Below, piece after piece: positions 2,999 through 61,845 of a stretch of DNA of 64,000 nucleotides; the stretch's first letter is position 1; each line of letters opens with the position of its first letter. The translations under genes and the position numbers were made by a program. The notes beneath the pieces were generated by a model that searched no databases, was not told the DNA's origin, and was given only the letters and a program-made list of their open reading frames with translations. Source of the DNA: an uncultured Ruminococcus sp. Its GTDB lineage: Bacteria > Bacillota > Clostridia > Oscillospirales > Acutalibacteraceae. The stretch is taken from NCBI GenBank assembly GCA_902763365.1, contig CACWRT010000001.1, positions 20,943-84,942 of the forward strand. The letters run 5' to 3'.

Positions 2999-3342
2999 AT
3001 GGTCAAACACAACTATTTACAAAAAGATTATACACCAAACGGAGTAGAAAAGCAACTGAAAATTCCGTTTGAAATAGAATTGAAATAGAATTAAAAATAG
3101 ATAGAAGTGATCCGGTCATGTTGCTGAGTCAGTATGTGGAGGAAATGGATTTAACTGACTTGTATTCCACTTATGAAAGAATAAGGGAAAATCAGGTAAC
3201 ACCGAGACAGCTTTTAAAGATATTGCTATACGGATATATGAATCGAGAGTATTCAAGCAGAGCAATAGAAACAAGATGTAAACGAGACATCAATTTCATG
3301 TATCTGCTGGAGGACAATCCTGCACCGGATCATTCTACAATA
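2999..3342 (+). pseudogene. IS1182-family transposase remnant (N-terminal ~110 codons only, frame broken)
   Basis: MVKHNYLQKDYTPNGVEKQLKIPFEIELK* is followed in another frame by IDRSDPVMLLSQYVEEMDL...PRQLLKILLYGYMNREYSSRAIETRCKRDINFMYLLEDNPAPDHSTI. This is the typical IS1182/DUF772 N-terminus. It is interrupted by a tandem 11-bp duplication (3071-3081, 3082-3092), and similarity ends after DHSTI. Confidence 0.75.
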
Positions 3343-3371
3343 GTAAGATATAACACAAATATTTGCATTAT

Positions 3372-3395
3372 AAAAAAGCACCCGTTTCCGAGTGC
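3372..3395 (-). terminator. Rho-independent terminator candidate for the 76-aa gene
   Basis: On the minus strand: GCACTCGGAAACGGGTGC stem-loop followed by TTTTTT. Confidence 0.5.
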
Positions 3396-3498
3396 CTTAA
3401 TTCATTCTTTGTCTTTCCTGTTAATAAAGTTATTATGTTTTTTATCAAAGGTACATATACTATAACCCGAAACTGTATGATAAGCACATAGCAAACAA

Positions 3499-3729
3499 TC
3501 AACAAAATCCGGATAGCTTTATATGCTTTTCAGCAGCAGCAGATTCCCATGCACTTTTTTCAAGCGGAATCAGTTCAGGATCTGCTGCAAAGCTCCAAGC
3601 TCCCCTTAAAGATTTGTTCTTTGTACTATTTGATTGTTCATGAAAGATTTTTAAAACTGACATGACTGCATTGAACGCTTCATCATTCAGTTCATCTATC
3701 CATGTGTGAGCAAGTTCTCTTGTTGTCAT
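3499..3729 (-). CDS. Hypothetical small protein (76 aa)
   Basis: The ORF is intact, AGGGAGGGA lies 9 nt upstream of the ATG, and a terminator lies downstream. I recognise no family. Confidence 0.5.
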   Translation of the reverse strand: MTTRELAHTWIDELNDEAFNAVMSVLKIFHEQSNSTKNKSLRGAWSFAADPELIPLEKSAWESAAAEKHIKLSGFC

Positions 3730-3777: not shown

Positions 3778-5139
3778 CTATAAAAGCATCTTCGTGCTTT
3801 CAGCGCTGTCGAGGGTTTCGACCTGGCTTAATTTGCGGTTGATCTGCCTTGTGCGGACTCCTACAAGCTTTTCAAGATCGTCCTGCGCAGCGACAAGACG
3901 TTTCTGAGTTTTCTCAAGGGCATCGCTGAATGTGTTGAATTCCGTTTTGACAGCTCCGAGTATTTTCCAGACTTCTCCGCTGCGCTTTTGTATCGCAAGG
4001 GTGCGGAATCCCATTTGCAGGGAGTTGAGCATTGCCGCCATTGTTGACGGACCGGCAATATTGACCTGATACTCACGCTGCAATTCTGTGACAAGATCGC
4101 TGTTTACGACCTCGGCATACAGACCCTCAAAGGGCAGGAACATTATGCCGAATTGGGTCGTGTATGGCGGATATATGTATTTTTCCTTTATATCCTTTGC
4201 ATTTTTCTTTACAGCGGCAAAAAGCTCTTTCTTCACCGAGGCTATCCTATCCTTGTCGCCGCTTTCATAGGCTGACTGTAAGCGGGTATATATATCTCCG
4301 TTGAATTTTGAGTCTATCGGCAGATAAACTGTGCTGCCCTCTTCCGCCCCCGGCAGCTTAACAGCAAATTCTACTCTGTTGCTGCTGCCCTTGACCGTGG
4401 CCACATTTTCTTCATACTGTTCCGGCGCAAGTATCTGCTCAAGAATCGAACCTAACTGTATCTCTCCGAGTATTCCTCTGGTTTTTACGTTGGAAAGGAC
4501 GTTTTTAAGATCACCTACACCCTGTGCGATCGTCTGCATCTCTCCAAGTCCCTTATAGACCTGCTCGAGCCGTTCGCTTACAAGCTTGAATGAATCCGTG
4601 ATCTTTTTGTCAAGGGTTTCCTGAAGCTTTTCATCTACCGTTCCTCGTATTTTTTCAAGCTGTCTGTTGTTGTCATCAGCCAGCTTGCTTAGCTGCCGCT
4701 CATTGGTTTCATTCATGCTTTTCAGCTGCATCGTCAGTGATGAGCGTATTTCAGAAAGCTTCCGGTCGGTCGTTGTTTCAAGTGTTCTCAGACGCTCTTC
4801 AAACTGCTTCATTCTTGCAGCTTCTGTTTTGTTCATGCTGTCAAGCTGCGCAGTAACCGAGCCGTTCATGGCTTCTATTTTTGTGTCCATAGAATCTCTC
4901 AGGTTTTCTCCGAGAGTTCCTATGTTTGAATTTACGGTATTGTTGATCTCCTGCCGCAGACTACTCTGACTTTGTGACTGCTCCTGCTGTATGCGTGACA
5001 GCTGACCTTCAAGCAGCTTTATCTGCGTTTTAAGCTCACTGCTCTTATCTTCGCCGCCGCTCTTTTTTCTGAGTATAAAAATATCCGCACCCACAAGAAA
5101 AACAATAATAATGAGCAGTATTATTTCAACAATATCCAT
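3778..5139 (-). CDS. rmuC: DNA recombination protein RmuC
   Basis: It has an N-terminal TM helix, a long Q/E-rich coiled coil, and a C-terminal RmuC-type region (GEIQLGSILEQILAPEQY...FGIMFLPFEGLYAE...NIAGPSTMAAMLNSLQMGF). Confidence 0.85.
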   Translation of the reverse strand: MDIVEIILLIIIVFLVGADIFILRKKSGGEDKSSELKTQIKLLEGQLSRIQQEQSQSQSSLRQEINNTVNSNIGTLGENLRDSMDTKIEAMNGSVTAQLDSMNKTEAARMKQFEERLRTLETTTDRKLSEIRSSLTMQLKSMNETNERQLSKLADDNNRQLEKIRGTVDEKLQETLDKKITDSFKLVSERLEQVYKGLGEMQTIAQGVGDLKNVLSNVKTRGILGEIQLGSILEQILAPEQYEENVATVKGSSNRVEFAVKLPGAEEGSTVYLPIDSKFNGDIYTRLQSAYESGDKDRIASVKKELFAAVKKNAKDIKEKYIYPPYTTQFGIMFLPFEGLYAEVVNSDLVTELQREYQVNIAGPSTMAAMLNSLQMGFRTLAIQKRSGEVWKILGAVKTEFNTFSDALEKTQKRLVAAQDDLEKLVGVRTRQINRKLSQVETLDSAESTKMLL

Positions 5140-12373: not shown

Positions 12374-12590
12374 TAGGTAAATAGTGAGAGCAATTAGCTC
12401 AAAGCGGGTAGCAGTTAGCTCAAAGCATGGCGGCTAAAAGTAATAAACTCTTGAAAATTCTATGGCAGCATAAACTTTATTGCAAAATGAGCGGCTAATA
12501 AAATCTGGCTCCGCAGTTCAAAGCAGATGGCTATTAGCTCAAAGCATGGCGGCTAAAATTTTCTTTGCTAAAAGCTGATTTATTTGTCGC
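12374..12590 (+). repeat. Intergenic repeat module C, with an internal 25-nt perfect direct repeat
   Basis: ttagctcaaagcatggcggctaaaa occurs at 12415-12439 and 12534-12558. The tail ...ttttctttgctaaaagctgatttatttgtcgctg aligns with 20110-20155 and 53410-53448. Confidence 0.8.
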
Positions 12591-12705
12591 TGAGCCGCTC
12601 AGAAAAGCCTGATACGCGGTCAGTACAGTATGAATAGTGAGTTCAGAGCGGATGCGAAGCGGAGCGATACCCGCGTTTAGGGTCCAGCGTCACGCTGGCG
12701 CCGGC
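12591..12705 (+). repeat. Intergenic repeat module A
   Basis: tgagccgctcagaaaagcctgatacgcgg...gttcagagcggatgcgaagcggagcgatacccgcgtttagggtCCAGCGtcaCGCTGGcgccggc. A near copy lies at 20745-20861. Confidence 0.85.
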
Positions 12706-16231: not shown

Positions 16232-16330
16232 AAAACATATCCTCCTAATCTTTTTATTCCAAAGCGTATGAATTTACCCTTGTATCAATATAATATGCCT
16301 TTTTCTTTCTTTCGTTACTTTTCCTCTCTG

Positions 16331-16420
16331 CGCCCCTGCGGAGGGGCTGCCGCCCCTGCACCCTGCCGGGGCGGCAGCCCTGGACCCGCAAGCCTTTGAA
16401 AAGGCCTCTGCGAAACTTTT
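16331..16420 (-). repeat. GC-rich hairpin cluster plus an inverted fragment of the MITE-like element
   Basis: GGCTGCCGCCCC (16345-16356) pairs perfectly with GGGGCGGCAGCC (16368-16379). ggacccgcaagcctttgaaaaggcctctgcgaaacttt is the reverse complement of the left part of 44468-44510 with a few mismatches. Confidence 0.75.
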
Positions 16421-20067: not shown

Positions 20068-20260
20068 TTATAATTAGCTCAAAGCTAAGGGCTCAGAGCT
20101 CAGAGCAGCGGCGGTTCAGATTTTTTCGTTTAAAGTTGAAATTTTTGTCGCTGTAAGTTATCTAAAGTGTTCCATGATACGATAGCATCAAGGTCAAAGC
20201 TTGTTGGCTCAGATTTTCTTAGCTTAAATCCGCTTTACTTGTTATTGTGAGTTCTGTCAA
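20068..20260 (+). repeat. Intergenic repeat module C
   Basis: agctcaaagctaagggctcagag...ggcggttcagattttttcgtttaaagttgaaatttttgtcgctgtaagtt aligns with 53374-53450 and 12530-12590. Confidence 0.75.
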
Positions 20261-20295
20261 GGTCATCCTTGCGAATGACGGCTTTCCCAAAGGGG

Positions 20296-20448
20296 CAATG
20301 GTTTCAATTTAAGGTAAACATAATTGATAAAGTTTCGCTCAAGCCTTTTCAAAGGCTTGCAGGGTCCAGGGGCAGCGCCCTTGGTCGCTGCGTTAGCAGC
20401 GAAACAAGTCTTCAAATCTTTCGTCAAAGTCTTAGGTTGACAGCATTG
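20296..20448 (+). mobile_element. MITE-like element, older copy (153 bp)
   Basis: It is the same length as 44438-44590. There are 4 mismatches over the 129-nt core. The ends caatggtttcaat / gttgacagcattg are partly decayed, and the flanks tcccaaagggg / ccccgaagggg match 9 of 11. Confidence 0.75.
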
Positions 20449-20514
20449 CCCCGAAGGGGAAGCCGAGCGGCAGTTTTAACTTCTATTCTAGTTGTTCAGT
20501 AAATCGGGTACACC

Positions 20515-20553
20515 TTATAATGAATAATGAATAATGAATAATGAATAATGATA
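20515..20553. repeat. Heptanucleotide tandem repeat (TGAATAA x4 plus partial units)
   Basis: Read directly at 20521-20548. Confidence 0.9.
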
Positions 20554-20659
20554 TAGTAAATTTTCGATTAATTATTACTGAATTACTAAAAAACAGAGGT
20601 GAGGATTATAAAACTATCAGCCGATCAAAAAGTAATAACCGCGACAAGTAAAGGCTGCA

Positions 20660-20724
20660 GCGATGAGCCCAGGGCGGATGCGAAGCGGAGCGATACCCGC
20701 GTTTAGGGTCCGGCGGCTCGCCGG
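20660..20724 (+). repeat. Intergenic repeat module A (3' half only)
   Basis: ggcggatgcgaagcggagcgatacccgcgtttagggtCCGGCGgctCGCCGG. Confidence 0.8.
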
Positions 20725-20744
20725 TATTATCTATGGTAAAAAAA

Positions 20745-20861
20745 TGAGCTGCTCAAGAAGCTTGATACGCGGGCAGTAAAGCCTGAATTGCGAGTTCAGA
20801 GCGGAGCGTAAGCGCAGCGATACCCGCGTTTAGGGTCCGGCGGCTCGCCGGGCGCCGGGGG
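20745..20861 (+). repeat. Intergenic repeat module A (full copy)
   Basis: tgagctgctcaagaagcttgatacgcgg...gttcagagcggagcgtaagcgcagcgatacccgcgtttagggtCCGGCGgctCGCCGGgcgccgggggg. Confidence 0.85.
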
Positions 20862-20862
20862 G

Positions 20863-20891
20863 TTGACAATGAGGGAATAGAAGTGTAAAAT
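20863..20891 (+). promoter_or_regulatory. Sigma-A-type promoter candidate
   Basis: TTGACA 20863-20868, a 17-nt spacer, TAAAAT 20886-20891, immediately after module A. Confidence 0.5.
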
Positions 20892-21052
20892 ATAATTGGA
20901 GTTTTATCGAAAATGAGAATGTTTACACATTTTCTTTATACTTTATTTAAAAAGGGATATGAAATATAGTTATAATCAACAAAAAGATAGGCTTGTTATT
21001 ATCTGAAATATAAGCTTATTAAATGAAAAAACAGCAAAAGGAGAGTGGTATA

Positions 21053-38322: not shown

Positions 38323-39111
38323 ATGACAAGATTGTATCCGCTTTTCAGCGGCAGCAGCGGAAACTGCTATTATATAGGTTCGCCGGAAAGGGGCATACTT
38401 ATAGATGCGGGAAGAAGTGCAAAGCAGATAGAAAATGCGCTCAGCAGCAGAGAGCTTTCCCCCGGAAATATCAGCTCTATATTTGTCACTCATGAACACA
38501 GCGACCATATCAGCGGTTTAAAGGTTCTTGCGTCAAGGTATGGTATAAAGGTGTATACATCGGCAGGAACACTAAAGCAGCTTAAACAGAAGAACTATAT
38601 AAATGAGAAAGTGAATGCAGAGGTTATAGGTGCTGATGGAATCGAAACGGACGAGATGAAGATTTGCCCGTTCAGGATATCCCATGACTGTGCAGAGGGG
38701 TATGGATATGTTGTAGAAACCTCTGACGGACGCAAAACGGCCTTTGCCACCGATACCGGATATATTACCGAAGAAATGACTGCTGCGCTGACAGGATGTG
38801 ACACAGTCGTGATAGAAAGCAATCATGATGTGCGTATGCTTGAAAGCGGAAGTTATCCTTACATATTGAAAAAACGTATTTTGTCTGATGTAGGACATTT
38901 GTCCAATGATACCTGTGCTGCGGAGCTTGTAAGACTGGTGAAAAATGGTACAACAAGACTTTTGCTTGCGCATCTGAGCCGAGAAAACAATATGCCTCTT
39001 CTTGCAGAGCAGACAGCGAAATGTGAGCTTGATATTAATGGTATGAAAAGGGACATAGATTATATTCTGAGGGTAGTACCAGAAGTAGGCGGAGAAACTC
39101 TTATCTATTGA
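38323..39111 (+). CDS. MBL-fold metallo-hydrolase (YycJ-like)
   Basis: MTRLYPLFSGSSGNCYYIG...VTHEHSDHISG. Confidence 0.85.
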   Translation: MTRLYPLFSGSSGNCYYIGSPERGILIDAGRSAKQIENALSSRELSPGNISSIFVTHEHSDHISGLKVLASRYGIKVYTSAGTLKQLKQKNYINEKVNAEVIGADGIETDEMKICPFRISHDCAEGYGYVVETSDGRKTAFATDTGYITEEMTAALTGCDTVVIESNHDVRMLESGSYPYILKKRILSDVGHLSNDTCAAELVRLVKNGTTRLLLAHLSRENNMPLLAEQTAKCELDINGMKRDIDYILRVVPEVGGETLIY

Positions 39112-39132
39112 GGCAAATAACGGAGAAATGAA

Positions 39133-39615
39133 ATGGTAAAGATAAGTATTATATGCGTAGGTAAACTGAAAGAAAGCTATTGGAGAGAAGCAATAGCAGA
39201 GTATAGTAAGCGAATGAGCAGATTTGCAGATTTTTGTATAATAGAAGTTGATGAGGAAAAACTTCCCGACTCGCCTTCCGTAAGCCAGATAGAAAATACA
39301 GTTAAAAAAGAAGGCGAGCGTATACTTTCAAAGCTGCCGAAAAACTGTACGGCAGCAGCAATGTGCATTGAGGGAAAACGTTTTTCTTCCGAAAAGTTAG
39401 CGGAAGTCATTCAGCAGAACGCTTCTTTCGGCAGCGGAAATATCTGTTTTATAATAGGCGGTTCCTGGGGACTGTCGGATGAAGTAAAAACATCTTCCGA
39501 TATCCGTATGTCCATGTCTGAAATGACCTTTCCTCACCAGTTGGCAAGAGTCATGCTGTGCGAACAGATATACCGCTCCCTCAACATCCTCTCCCACACC
39601 AAATACCACAAATAA
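39133..39615 (+). CDS. rlmH: 23S rRNA (pseudouridine1915-N3)-methyltransferase RlmH
   Basis: KISIICVGKLKESYWREAIAEYSKR...IGGSWGLSDEV...MTFPHQLARVMLCEQIYR. Confidence 0.92.
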   Translation: MVKISIICVGKLKESYWREAIAEYSKRMSRFADFCIIEVDEEKLPDSPSVSQIENTVKKEGERILSKLPKNCTAAAMCIEGKRFSSEKLAEVIQQNASFGSGNICFIIGGSWGLSDEVKTSSDIRMSMSEMTFPHQLARVMLCEQIYRSLNILSHTKYHK

Positions 39616-39735
39616 CCGGCCCGGTGTAACGCCGGACCCTAAACGCGGGTATCGCTGCGCTCTGTCTGAACAGTTCAGGCCCCATTATTACACGCTGATT
39701 TTCTGACTTTTGCGATAAAGCTTGTTACACGAAAA
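39616..39735 (-). repeat. Intergenic repeat module A (inverted, diverged copy)
   Basis: ccggtgtaacgccggaccctaaacgcgggtatcgctgcgctctgtctgaac is the reverse complement of gttcagacagagcgcagcgatacccgcgtttagggtccggcg... Confidence 0.75.
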
Positions 39736-39755
39736 TAATAGACGATTTTGCGGGT

Positions 39756-39850
39756 CAAGGGGCTTGAGCCCCTTGTGAGGTGCAGGGCGAGGAGCCCTGC
39801 CGGAGTCCAGAGGCAGAGCCTCTGGCGGATTCCAAAGGCGGAGCCTTTGG
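39756..39850. repeat. Tandem array of four perfect GC-rich hairpins, 25-26-nt period
   Basis: CAAGGGGC-ttga-GCCCCTTG (39756-39775). GCAGGGC-gagga-GCCCTGC (39782-39800). CCAGAGGC-aga-GCCTCTGG (39807-39825). CCAAAGGC-gga-GCCTTTGG (39832-39850). Confidence 0.9.
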
Positions 39851-40055
39851 CCGTCGGAGACACAGAAAACAGAACTCACCCATGCGAGCGCTGTAATATT
39901 TAAAGGAAAAAGGAATTAAAGGAAAAGCTATGATAACGATGAGGATAAAAGCTTGATATTATTGAAGAGATGTGTTAGAATATAGAGTGTATTTGTATGC
40001 ACATCGGTTTTGAGATGTATTTGATTAGGATTTGATATAGAAAGGAAGTTTCTGT

Positions 40056-40601
40056 ATGGTTTATCTATTTCTTGCAGAAGGATTTGAAACAGTAGAAGCG
40101 CTTGCTCCTCTCGATATTCTGAGAAGAGGCAAGGTTGAACTGAAAACTGTAGGCATAACAGGGAAAACTGTTGTCAGCTCTCACGGAGTTGAGGTGACGG
40201 CTGATTTAACAGCTGATGATATCGCATTGGATGAAAATATAGAAGCAGTTATACTTCCGGGAGGTATGCCCGGTACGCTGAACCTTGGAAATTCAGATAA
40301 GGTTATCAATGCTGTAAGATACTGCTATGAGCACGACATTCTTATCGGTGCGATTTGCGCAGCGCCGTCCATACTTGGTGAAATGGGTCTGCTTGAGGGC
40401 AAAAAGGCTACTGCTTTTCCGGGCTTTGAATTAAAGCTCAAGGGTGCTGTATACAATAACGGCTATATCGAAACTGACGGAAATATCATTACTGCAAGAG
40501 GTATGGGTGTGGCAACAGAATTCGGCATTGAGCTGCTTGCTGCCTTAAAAGGCAGAGAAACTGCCGATCAGGTAAAGGCTTCGATACAATGCAGGAACTG
40601 A
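40056..40601 (+). CDS. DJ-1/PfpI (ThiJ) family protein
   Basis: LPGGMPG and the nucleophile elbow IGAICAAPSILG are present. Confidence 0.88.
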   Translation: MVYLFLAEGFETVEALAPLDILRRGKVELKTVGITGKTVVSSHGVEVTADLTADDIALDENIEAVILPGGMPGTLNLGNSDKVINAVRYCYEHDILIGAICAAPSILGEMGLLEGKKATAFPGFELKLKGAVYNNGYIETDGNIITARGMGVATEFGIELLAALKGRETADQVKASIQCRN

Positions 40602-41188
40602 CAGAAAGAAAAAATAACGTCCGCCGTGACTGCAAAAAGCGAAGAATCGCTATGGAGCGAGATGAAAAAAAACGGGCTGACAGTATCATTTATGACAGAA
40701 CATGGGATATAATAAGAACAAGACTTGATATGGAAACAGTTCTGTACTCCTATGTTTCTTCCCCGGAAATGGAAGTCGATACGCTCAGACTTATTGATAA
40801 GGCATTTGGGAATAAGATAATGATCGCTGTACCCAGGTGTGTTACAGGTACGCTCGCTCTTGAGCATTACTTTATCAATGACCGCAGTCAGCTTATAAAA
40901 GGTCACTTCGGAATAATGGAACCCGATCCGCAGAAATGTTCTGTTGTATCTCCGCCTCATGAGGGGATATGTATTGTGCCCGGTCTTGCTTTTGATATTA
41001 CGGGTATAAGAATGGGGTACGGTAAGGGGTATTATGACAGATTTCTTGAAAAATTCAGCGGACTTAAAATAGGACTGTGTTATGAAAACTGCTTTTATAC
41101 CGAAACGCTTCCCCATGATGAGCATGATGCTGTTATGGATTTAATAATAACGGACAAGAAAGTCAGACAAATAAAGAAGATCAGCTGA
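40589..41188 (+). CDS. 5-formyltetrahydrofolate cyclo-ligase
   Basis: The C-terminus carries GLAFD...G.R.GYGKGYYDRFL. It overlaps the DJ-1 gene by 13 nt. Confidence 0.85.
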   Translation: MQELTERKNNVRRDCKKRRIAMERDEKKRADSIIYDRTWDIIRTRLDMETVLYSYVSSPEMEVDTLRLIDKAFGNKIMIAVPRCVTGTLALEHYFINDRSQLIKGHFGIMEPDPQKCSVVSPPHEGICIVPGLAFDITGIRMGYGKGYYDRFLEKFSGLKIGLCYENCFYTETLPHDEHDAVMDLIITDKKVRQIKKIS

Positions 41189-44437: not shown

Positions 44438-44590
44438 CAATACTGTCAACTTGAGGAAAAAACAATTGACAAAGTTTCGCTCAAGCCTTTTCAAAGGCTT
44501 GCAGGGTCCAGGGGCAGCGCCCTTGGTCGCTGCGTTAGCAGCGAAACAAGTCTCCAAATCTTTCGTCAATGTCTTAGGTTGACAGTATTG
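44438..44590 (+). mobile_element. MITE-like non-autonomous element (153 bp) with 13-bp perfect TIRs
   Basis: CAATACTGTCAAC (44438-44450) and GTTGACAGTATTG (44578-44590) are exact reverse complements. They are flanked by identical ccttatgaagc at 44427-44437 and 44591-44601. Confidence 0.85.
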
Positions 44591-59370: not shown

Positions 59371-60162
59371 ATGATTTGTCCGAGTTGTGGAGCAAATGTC
59401 TCTGACGGGACGAAGTTTTGCCCTGAATGCGGTAAGCCTATGCCTGTGAACGGTTCGTACCAAGGGGGTAATAATAATCCGCCGACTTACGGCCAGCCGA
59501 TGGATCAGCAGCCCTATGGTCAGCCGCAGGCTCCGATGCCCGGTTATGGGCAGCCTCAGGGTCAGATGCCGACCTACAGTCAGCCGCAGGCTCCGATGCC
59601 CGGTTATGGACAGCCCCAGGGTCAGATGCCTGCTTACGGACAGTCACAGGGATATGCGCCGCCGCCGCTGAACATTGCAAGTATGACTCCTCTTCAGGCA
59701 GCTGAAGCACGATTTCCCATGAAGTGGTACAAGTTTCTGATTTATTTTGCTTTGATCGCAGGTGCATTGTTGAATCTTGGAAAATCCTTTATGTATTTTA
59801 GCGGAACATTATATGGTGATGTTGCCCCGGAACAGATTTACTCTTATTTTGAAGGGCTGAGAGTTCTGGATATATTTATGGGAATAGCCTCAATAGCTGT
59901 TGCCAGTTTAGGAATAGTAGCATGGTATCATCTTTTGAAATTCAAGAAGAGAGGACCTGTACTGCTGTATGCTCTTTATGGAATATGTGCGCTTATCAAT
60001 ATTGTATATTGTCTTGTTTCCGTATCTATAGCTTCCGGTGCGGGAGCAAATGCTTCAGATATCATAACTTCAAATATGATATCTCCCATTATTTCAAATC
60101 TGATATGGCTTTCCGTAAATTTCTCATATTTCAATAAACGTAAAGAACTGTTTGTTAACTGA
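59371..60162 (+). CDS. Zinc-ribbon membrane protein with a Pro/Gln/Gly-rich repeat linker
   Basis: MICPSCGANVSDGTKFCPECG (zinc ribbon) is followed by (PYGQPQAPMPGYGQPQGQMP)n and then about four TM helices. Confidence 0.8.
   Translation: MICPSCGANVSDGTKFCPECGKPMPVNGSYQGGNNNPPTYGQPMDQQPYGQPQAPMPGYGQPQGQMPTYSQPQAPMPGYGQPQGQMPAYGQSQGYAPPPLNIASMTPLQAAEARFPMKWYKFLIYFALIAGALLNLGKSFMYFSGTLYGDVAPEQIYSYFEGLRVLDIFMGIASIAVASLGIVAWYHLLKFKKRGPVLLYALYGICALINIVYCLVSVSIASGAGANASDIITSNMISPIISNLIWLSVNFSYFNKRKELFVN
59521..59640 (+). repeat. In-frame 60-bp tandem duplication (2 copies, 53/60 identical)
   Basis: 59521-59580 and 59581-59640 are aligned by eye. Confidence 0.9.
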
Positions 60163-61593: not shown

Positions 61594-61608
61594 GAGACGG
61601 CTGTGTTG

Positions 61609-61755
61609 CACGGAAATCAATTTACGAAGATCATATAAGATAAAATTTGTTTTTGGGGAAAGGGGTCCGGGGCGCAGAGCCTGCGCCTTGGTCGCTGCGT
61701 TAGCAGCGAAACAAGTCTCCAAATCTTTCGTCAATGTCTTAGGTTGACGGCGTTT
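61609..61755 (+). repeat. Chimeric repeat: left part of the 53508-type element fused to the right part of the 153-bp MITE-like element
   Basis: cacggaaatcaatttacgaagatcatataagataaaatttgttttt matches 53508-53553. ...ttggtcgctgcgttagcagcgaaacaagtctccaaatctttcgtcaatgtcttaggttgac is identical to 44523-44583. Confidence 0.8.
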
Positions 61756-61845
61756 GGGGTAAAAGGTGAATTTTTTGCTGCAACAAATGCGGCAGGATAT
61801 ACACTTGATATTTTTTGACTGAAAATTTATTGAGGAAGTGACTTT

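Follow-up and report, generated by a model that had tools for sequence, protein, structure and literature searches.

A cluster of tagged GC-rich palindromic repeats, probably REP/BIME-like in behaviour, between rlmH and a DJ-1 gene of an uncultured Ruminococcus

Introduction

Repetitive extragenic palindromic (REP) sequences and bacterial interspersed mosaic elements (BIMEs), known from Enterobacteria and Pseudomonas and associated with REP-associated tyrosine transposases (RAYTs), and the REP doublets forming hairpins (REPINs), are short, GC-rich extragenic palindromes that occur both dispersed and in clusters. As a rule, REP-type repeats are specific to a lineage and linked to a RAYT that is inherited vertically. 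We analyse here a tandem array of four hairpins at positions 39756-39850 of a 64-kb stretch of DNA from an uncultured Ruminococcus sp. (the whole stretch is called the window; all coordinates are window-based, and L-numbers such as L002 or L137 designate contigs or loci retrieved from other assemblies). We read the array as a four-unit cluster of a dispersed, tagged, GC-rich palindromic repeat that is REP/BIME-like in its behaviour, and give this reading a probability of roughly 0.6. The likeness extends to a tag that is left unpaired immediately 5' of the stem, compensatory evolution of the stems, a preference for co-directional and convergent spacers, a cluster size that varies among strains, and mosaics with other repeat motifs. 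The array family differs in its tag (CGGRKT, not GTAG) and in its shorter hairpins (19-20 nt), which are perfect, close with triloops and have no bulge. BIMEs alternate in orientation and REPINs are inverted doublets, whereas the array family is arranged head-to-tail with linkers of 5-7 nt. Furthermore, no linkage to a RAYT was found, and the unit sequence is common across phyla, unlike the lineage-specific classical REPs. When the array itself was examined for REP features, it proved to consist of extragenic palindromes present at multiple loci, with neither a GTAG or CGTC tag nor an alternating or inverted order.

The GTAG- and CGTC-tagged REP superfamilies (PMC3733652) resemble the array family in being tagged stem-loops that are spread over several phyla and lie mostly downstream of open reading frames (ORFs). 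CGTC repeats are without a dedicated transposase (Di Nocera et al. 2013, PMC3733652); their stems begin with A-T pairs and have a CCA tail at the end, their head-to-tail dimers are reported to be negligible, and they are reported missing in Acetobacteraceae (PMC3733652). The words 'Firmicutes' and 'Clostridi' do not occur in the main text of that paper. The array family fits neither tag, and it is abundant in Acetobacteraceae and Clostridia. MITEs (miniature transposable elements with inverted repeats), defined by terminal inverted repeats (TIRs), target-site duplications (TSDs) and dependence on a DDE transposase, come into the comparison through a 153-nt element that contains the same hairpin between TIRs and shows a target duplication of ~10 bp (see below); the array units, in contrast, are 25 nt long, are joined head-to-tail, and have neither TIRs beyond the hairpin arms nor a TSD. 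Finally, hairpin-cluster intrinsic terminators, as presented in PMC8355165, share with the array the succession of several adjacent stable hairpins after a stop codon. The array units differ from these in being conserved and tagged, in recurring across loci and phyla in both orientations, and in having no U-tracts.

Anatomy of the array

The four units are made up as follows.

39750..39755, + strand: tag/linker of unit 1, GCGGGT (from the sequence)
39756..39775, + strand: hairpin of unit 1, CAAGGGGC-ttga-GCCCCTTG (hairpin scan and folding)
39776..39800, + strand: unit 2, linker TGAGGT and hairpin GCAGGGC-gagga-GCCCTGC (39782-39800; from the sequence)
39801..39825, + strand: unit 3, linker CGGAGT and hairpin CCAGAGGC-aga-GCCTCTGG (39807-39825), the canonical family unit
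39826..39850, + strand: unit 4, linker CGGATT and hairpin CCAAAGGC-gga-GCCTTTGG (39832-39850), a low-GC variant of the canonical unit

The four perfect hairpins and their 25-26-nt period, first proposed in the initial annotation of this DNA, were confirmed. Spacing from start to start is 26, 25 and 25 nt, and the true repeat unit of 25-26 nt combines a 6-nt purine-rich linker with a perfect hairpin of 19-20 nt. The unit consensus is a tag CGG-R-K-T, then CC-RRR-GGC, a purine-rich loop of 3-5 nt, and GCC-YYY-GG. Tandem Repeats Finder (TRF) returned a period of 25 covering the last 2.4 units. In the 64-kb window, 35 perfect hairpins have stems of 7 bp or more and loops of 3-6 nt; four of the 35 lie inside a single 95-nt stretch. 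The minimum-free-energy fold of either strand consists of the four array hairpins, with z-scores against dinucleotide shuffles of -5.2 for DNA, -3.2 for the + strand as RNA and -5.35 for the - strand as RNA.

Both flanking genes are on the + strand and co-oriented with the array: a SPOUT methyltransferase gene of the rlmH type (39133-39615), whose stop codon precedes the array by 135 nt, and a DJ-1/PfpI gene (40056-40601). Gene calls, an inspection for T-tracts and the presence of short ORFs only bear out the earlier statement that the array sits between rlmH and DJ-1 with neither U-tracts nor coding potential. No T-tract follows any array hairpin on the + strand, where the bases after each hairpin are G/C-rich; a terminator scan of 39000-40700 gave zero + strand sites and hence no sign of an intrinsic terminator; and the only ORFs overlapping the array encode 42-63 amino acids (aa). 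The possibility that the array belongs to an annotated structured RNA, raised with the original description, found no support in Rfam. At the gathering threshold, Rfam 15 had no match in the window, and at E<=10 the best match in the spacer was Clostridiales-2, with 13.2 bits against a cut-off of 58.6 bits. A CRISPR array was ruled out, the hairpins being separated by conserved 6-nt linkers, with no unique spacers of repeat-like length.

A family of tagged hairpins in other genomes

One genome per species, 185,579 species in all, was scanned with the pattern KTCCARRGGCNGNGCCYYTGG, which matches units 3 and 4 and the hairpin of the MITE-like element; at least 120 loci matched. Nearly every match listed shows CCAGRGGC-RGM-GCCYCTGG preceded by a CGG(A/G)(G/T)T linker and, before that, by a neighbouring hairpin. 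The K and T of the CGGRKT tag are fixed by the search pattern and the C, G and G are not; among the matches listed, these three unforced linker positions are at least 90% conserved, and an equally unforced upstream hairpin with a stem of at least 7 bp is present 133 times. Arrays of 3-5 units, head-to-tail and always with the tag 5', occur in many genomes. In addition, a relative of unit 4, TTCCAAAGGC-AGM-GCCTTTGG, was found repeatedly at many Clostridia loci, and a start unit made of GGGT and CAAGGGGC, as in unit 1, is also present in L113, L173 and L180. The commonest loops of the family are AGA and AGC, which rank above GGA.

The free stem positions of 142 non-redundant copies among the matches listed form Watson-Crick pairs in 280 of 284 cases, the remainder being three G.T and one A.C; the family matches are therefore not due to chance. 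These figures support the earlier proposal that selection or the generating mechanism acts on the palindrome and not on the primary sequence. A set of 46 two-hairpin copies without gaps has 99.3% of its cells paired and shows double-sided changes in 10 of 16 pairs (112 cells); the covariation score of this set, in which helix 1 had been pre-filtered for pairing, was reached by none of 500 shuffles. In the aligned copies, complementarity is kept by compensatory A-T/G-C switches, and the few imperfections are mostly G.T on the tag-bearing strand. In the neighbouring hairpins, the count on that strand is 13-15 G.T against 1-2 A.C, an asymmetry which suggests that one particular strand folds.

The initial annotation had regarded the array as a peculiarity of Clostridia. 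This did not hold, as nearly verbatim units were found in Alphaproteobacteria, Actinobacteria, Desulfovibrionales and phage contigs. Among the matches listed, the Clostridia hosts comprise Ruminococcus (including the cultured R. flavefaciens MA2007), Oscillospiraceae, Acutalibacteraceae, Anaerotruncus and Ruminiclostridium; the others comprise many Acetobacteraceae and Rhodospirillales (Acidiphilium, Roseomonas), sphingomonads, Humidesulfovibrio, Nitrosovibrio, Streptomyces and one metagenome-assembled genome (MAG) of Chloroflexaceae. Unit 3 with its linker is identical over 26 of 26 positions in Acetobacteraceae MAGs and in Ruminococcus/Oscillospiraceae MAGs. The same architecture is seen in ~35 of 53 matches to viral contigs of IMG/VR. 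A BLAST search of 72,556 plasmids with the array and with the two-hairpin element of Alphaproteobacteria gave three short, unannotated matches. Judged by these sequences, the units are dispersed both in this genome (see below) and across phyla. An intergenic palindromic repeat is ordinary as such; what is unusual is the architecture, the tag and, above all, the near-identity in unrelated phyla. That a rumen Clostridium and lichen- or acid-soil-associated Acetobacteraceae should have an identical unit of 25-26 nt stands out against the lineage specificity of REPs. The carriers include cultured hosts suitable for testing, namely Ruminococcus flavefaciens MA2007, Acidiphilium rubrum ATCC 35905, Roseomonas and Streptomyces. 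Two Acetobacteraceae chromosomes, OZ255620 and OY970156, also have the unit.

At the high-GC loci of Acetobacteraceae and Rhodospirillales (L019-L135) the family takes the form of a discrete element of ~75 nt, whose first hairpin is preceded at 8-9 nt by a conserved (C)TTAAG and whose second is followed by a CCTTGCYTGCC tail. Up to three copies of this element are found per 7 kb (L057).

No Rfam family covers the hairpins of 18 representative related loci. A full-text literature search for the exact unit sequences found no paper containing them, a keyword search (REP, RAYT, Clostridia, tandem hairpins, MITE, Ruminococcus) found no description of the family, and the stems were not found in the accessible parts of the supplements to RAYT/HUH surveys.

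Variation among strains and sister species

Contigs of the same species have the same array, and its presence in several independent assemblies shows that it is not an assembly artefact. The comparison of strains for unit number, advised at the outset, did reveal variation. In L137, which comes from two samples, exactly unit 3 is missing (25 nt, CGGAGTCCAGAGGCAGAGCCTCTGG), leaving a three-hairpin array in place of the four; since the loss is so precise, the unit is a discrete module. The indel has CGGA at both junctions, a 4-nt repeat. Between units 3 and 4 there are differences at 5 of 25 positions, one compensatory pair included, against ~1% divergence in the flanks of the strains, which indicates that the indel is the loss or gain of a pre-existing module and not a fresh duplication. 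Units are, in short, gained or lost whole. Two smaller differences are a single stem-breaking nucleotide polymorphism in unit 3 of L002 (GCCGCTGG) and a polymorphic linker in unit 2, which reads CGAGGT in L002 and L137. A scan of JGI metagenomes for further alleles with locus-specific 20-mers gave only four chance matches, at unrelated loci. In practice, the one-unit polymorphism is usable as a strain marker.

A 16-nt tandem, AAAGGAATTAAAGGAA, follows at 39900-39926, upstream of the DJ-1 promoter region. It is also length-polymorphic between strains, with two additional copies (+32 nt) in L137 and additional copies in L139. Same-species metagenome contigs often end inside the spacer, at 37-43 and ~311-327 nt after rlmH and at 52-208 nt before DJ-1; these repeated contig ends point to repeat-induced assembly breaks, a practical concern for metagenome assemblies of rumen Clostridia, which the repeats interrupt at intergenic regions.

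Exact matches to the RlmH protein came from ENA and Logan metagenome contigs only; among other RlmH proteins, the nearest has 77% identity. Three relatives with RlmH proteins 73-77% identical keep the murA-MBL-rlmH block and have no array. In L007, DJ-1 still lies downstream of rlmH, across an AT-rich spacer of 233 nt without hairpins; in L013 it does so across a 596-nt spacer full of other repeats, GGGTCCAGCGTCACGCTGGCGCCGGC among them; and in L010 a short AT-rich spacer is followed by an alpha-amylase gene in place of DJ-1. As sister species lack the array at the same synteny, neither rlmH nor DJ-1 has it as a conserved cis-element; it is in this lineage that the cluster arose.

Copies elsewhere in the window

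The hairpin type is not confined to the array, contrary to one of the possibilities considered in the initial annotation: it recurs both elsewhere in the window and in other genomes. The related features of the window are these.

20366..20384, + strand: array-type hairpin CCAGGGGC-agc-GCCCTTGG (GGGTCC AGGGGC-agc-GCCCTTGG) with one G.T pair, inside a 153-155-nt element at 20296-20450
44508..44526, + strand: the same hairpin, CCAGGGGC-agc-GCCCTTGG, with one G.T pair, inside a second 153-155-nt copy at 44438-44592
61667..61691, + strand: variant hairpin CCGGGGCGCAG-agc-CTGCGCCTTGG, in a third, chimeric copy at 61603-61757
16325..16420, - strand: partial copy of the left half of the MITE-like element (...TTCAAAGGCTTGCGGGTCC), followed by GC-rich hairpins CTGCCG/CGGCAG and AGGGGC/GCCCCT

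Inspection of 20366-20384 and 44508-44526 bore out the claim that the array-type hairpin is the central hairpin of a 153-bp element, and the replacement stem reported for the third copy (GGCGCAG-agc-CTGCGCC, 61671-61687) is likewise present, its seven perfect pairs being extended by two G.T and two C-G pairs to span 61667-61691. The 153-155-nt element has terminal inverted repeats, CAATACTGTCAAC/GTTGACAGTATTG, and the 44438 copy is bounded at both ends by a direct duplication of ~10 bp of flank, CCTTATGAAG; these two features make the element MITE-like. Its core consists of three hairpins, CAAGCCTTttcaAAGGCTTG, the GGGTCC-tagged hairpin and TCGCTGCgttaGCAGCGA. GGGTCC-tagged hairpins also terminate another repeat of the window, D2, described in the last section. 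Counting the array, the MITE-like copies and the other copies, the 64 kb contain the hairpin module in no fewer than three kinds of repeat context.

The three-hairpin core recurs in many Clostridia MAGs (L016, L053, L064, L101, L111, L116 and others), where its first and third stems covary and the AAAGTTT...GCGAAA flanks are conserved. The 61603 copy is chimeric in that its left half is like another repeat, at 53508-53565.

Density, gene context and strand

At loci with a GC content of at least 0.56, one further separate site was found per ~38 kb; the window has three sites in 64 kb. Extrapolated from these high-GC loci, the ~38-kb rate would imply copies of the scan pattern on the order of 100 per genome. 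Gene calls for the analysis of orientation were crude, being based on ORF length and GC content at third codon positions (GC3). With these calls, the 60 classifiable high-GC sites divide into 24 --, 21 +-, 12 ++ and 3 -+, so that a gene 3' end is nearby at 57 of the 60 (36 co-directional, 21 convergent) and only three spacers are divergent. In the co-directional spacers the tag-bearing strand is sense 12 times and antisense 24 times. Low-GC loci show the same mixed orientation, with many copies at contig ends. This bias to spacers containing gene 3' ends is a REP-like feature, and the window array, located between co-directional genes, conforms to it; the array and the related hairpins of the window (20366, 44508, 61667, 16325-16420) are all intergenic. 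GC skew is positive throughout the window, which makes the + strand, the tag-bearing strand of the array, the leading-strand sequence, i.e., the template of lagging-strand synthesis.

Interpretation and alternatives

If the array is indeed a cluster of REP/BIME-like repeats, its unit would be non-autonomous DNA that moves or expands and is active as a single-strand hairpin, here that of the + strand. New units would join existing ones through a putative enzyme recognising hairpin plus tag, HUH/Y1-like in its logic, and/or units would propagate by slippage at the CGGA junctions; purifying selection, together with intrastrand repair, could then hold the stems perfect. Effects on RNA would be incidental: rlmH read-through transcripts would contain four stable stem-loops, which could hold up 3' exonucleases or act as an insulator between rlmH and the DJ-1 operon. 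The resemblance to REP/BIME clusters drawn in the initial annotation stands for the intergenic position, the lineage-specific occurrence, the avoidance of divergent spacers and the variable number of units; it does not extend to the tag and the head-to-tail order, and no RAYT link was found. More tentatively, the family might represent a third tagged-palindrome superfamily (CGGRKT plus CCRRRGGC, head-to-tail), horizontally spread across phyla and served by a non-RAYT enzyme that recognises hairpin plus tag. The hosts of such a superfamily would possibly be rumen and gut Oscillospirales, Acetobacteraceae/Rhodospirillales, Streptomyces, Desulfovibrionales and their phages. Cross-phylum identity, head-to-tail order, the deviating tag and the failure to find a linked Y1 gene point either to an unrecognised mobilising enzyme or to horizontally transmissible repeats.

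Several results weigh against reading the array as a REP/BIME-like cluster. The search for a RAYT or other Y1 transposase, recommended with the initial annotation, was negative for the window: tblastn with IS200, IS608 and E. coli RAYT sequences as queries revealed no Y1 gene, and among 10 selected window ORFs scanned with Pfam the only match was a DUF772 transposase fragment. When all retrieved loci were searched by tblastn with the E. coli RAYT sequence, a single ORF emerged (L110, 3222-3629), scoring 22.1 bits with Pfam Y1_Tnp (cut-off, 23 bits) and belonging to a gene (3130-3629) that is probably frameshifted near its start. Its family consists of ~170-aa proteins of gut and rumen Clostridia, with HVH and YIYTNP motifs and 2,763 relatives at E<=10^-10, and its clusters are mostly confined to one or few contigs. 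Neither the L110 ORF nor four homologues (L203-L206, 2001-~2516) are flanked by array-type hairpins or by any REP cluster, so that these five RAYT-like genes of related Clostridia also fail to provide the link. Clustering of 1,980 ORFs located within 1.5 kb of repeats showed only ABC ATPases to recur. Among low-GC loci, 180 kb contained no second site, and the source species is not among the matches listed in the 185,579-species scan. The analysis of orientation rests on crude gene calls, and the wobble bias comprises only ~15 events and could reflect mutational bias. Lastly, no pair of empty and filled sites was found for a whole cluster, so that transposition is not shown, and the one-unit indel could be explained by simple slippage.

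The main rival is a role at the RNA level, in which the array would be an rlmH 3'-untranslated-region (3'-UTR) stabiliser, or a hairpin-cluster terminator or insulator before the operon of DJ-1, 5-formyltetrahydrofolate (5-FTHF) ligase and mltG, and would be retained for that purpose without being primarily mobile. We consider this rather unlikely. The co-orientation of the array with both flanks at 135 nt after the rlmH stop, the great stability of the hairpins as RNA, the family imperfections that are mostly G.U-compatible on the tag strand and the gathering of family sites where genes end 3' would all suit such a role, and there is published precedent: REPs are reported to act as 3'-UTR elements, and hairpin clusters have been proposed as terminators (bioRxiv 10.64898/2026.03.23.713779; PMC8355165). 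However, no hairpin is followed by a U-tract, sister species do without the array at the same locus, one strain of the same species manages with three units, Rfam has no match, and the tag strand in co-directional spacers is sense 12 times and antisense 24 times, a mixed orientation that misfits a strand-specific function in RNA. A small RNA of its own, for instance a CsrA-type protein sponge with GGA/Shine-Dalgarno-like motifs transcribed from an upstream promoter, appears highly improbable. A weak sigma-70-like sequence, TTGCGA-18-AATAAT, does lie at 39710-39739, ~10 nt before the array, and five GGA motifs are found in loops and linkers within ~80 nt; yet the promoter matches the consensus at only 9 of 12 positions, promoter-like sites are not enriched (6 against 3.4 +/- 1.7 expected), a terminator is absent, the Rfam match to Clostridiales-2 is a sub-threshold one of 13 bits, the array is missing in relatives, and the family loops are mostly AGA/AGC and not GGA. 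Anatomy and loop composition of the family led us to reject the idea of a CsrA sponge with GGA motifs.

The two remaining alternatives concern DNA. Replication slippage could have duplicated a 25-nt unit in place to give a local minisatellite, without any mobility between loci, as the TRF period of 25, the one-unit length polymorphism bounded by CGGA microhomology and the adjacent, equally length-polymorphic 16-nt AAAGGAATTAAAGGAA tandem would allow. What makes this improbable is that 5 of the 25 positions differ between units 3 and 4, a compensatory pair among them, against ~1% in the flanks, so that the two are no recent duplication, that units 1 and 2 differ in both stem and loop, and that identical units are found at unrelated loci of the window and in other phyla. 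A duplex operator array for a dimeric DNA-binding protein, on the other hand, might be read from the fact that each unit is a 19-bp perfect palindrome and that the DJ-1 operon has four such units, in phase, upstream of its promoter region. It is scarcely credible, for the stem bases vary among units and genomes while complementarity is kept, which is the signature of intrastrand pairing and not of base-specific protein contacts; the asymmetry of G.T over A.C points to a single folding strand, and the sites adjoin unrelated genes in many phyla. The REP/BIME-like cluster is accordingly the reading we prefer among those considered.

Some further observations were made in the course of the enzyme search. 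The DUF772 fragment is the N-terminal domain, and the only one recognised (Pfam E = 4e-15), of a 115-aa ORF at 3118-3465 (+), located in the AT-rich, repeat-rich start of the window; this ORF is probably the remnant of a DDE transposase. The five RAYT-like genes examined are embedded among housekeeping genes. A scan of viral contigs for the RAYT-like protein gave none.

Other repeats around the array and in the window

The rlmH-DJ-1 spacer (39616-40055, 440 nt) is a mosaic of repeats, in the order rlmH stop, reverse D2 copy, array, 16-nt tandem and AT-rich promoter region of the DJ-1 operon. The D2 copies are as follows.

39616..~39720, - strand: D2 repeat, ~30 nt upstream of the first tag of the array, core ...GCGATACCCGCGTTTAGGGTCC plus a short hairpin
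12605-12698, 20631-20724 and 20758-20851, and L013 3600-3650: other D2 copies (length in the family, ~95-110 nt)

D2 repeats end in GCGATACCCGCGTTTAGGGTCC and a GC hairpin of 6 bp, the core closing with ...CGCGTTTAGGGTCC and the short hairpin. Their terminal GGGTCCAGCGTCACGCTGGCGCCGGC is shared without a difference by the window copy and a different species (L013). Two D2 copies have a good promoter-like -35/-10 pair on their downstream side, directly at 20851 and ~14 nt after 12698.

Further intergenic repeats, AGCTCAAAGC.../AGCTCAGGGCT... (~44-77 nt), are found at 12396-12598, 20083-20159 and 53376-53452, often beside other repeats, and the 955-nt spacer 20068-21022 consists of repeats almost throughout. 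Perfect or near-perfect heptamer microsatellites are present in intergenic DNA, namely AATAATG x4.9 (1215-1248), ATAATGA x5 (20517-20551) and GAGTGTG x4.6 (53193-53224). At 59508-59657, a 30-nt in-frame tandem of ~4 copies, rich in Gln, Pro, Gly, Tyr and Met, sits in a 263-aa ORF (59371-60162) with a zinc-ribbon domain at its start. Outside the window, the Clostridia MAG L110 has other palindromic repeats at 400-450, 3083-3112 and 4053-4276. These are of the types ...CGCAA-atRc-TTGCG...GGGGAT and GACCGTTC/GGAACGGT, the latter a double hairpin repeated ~170 nt apart; gut Clostridia such as L110 contain several distinct REP-like families.

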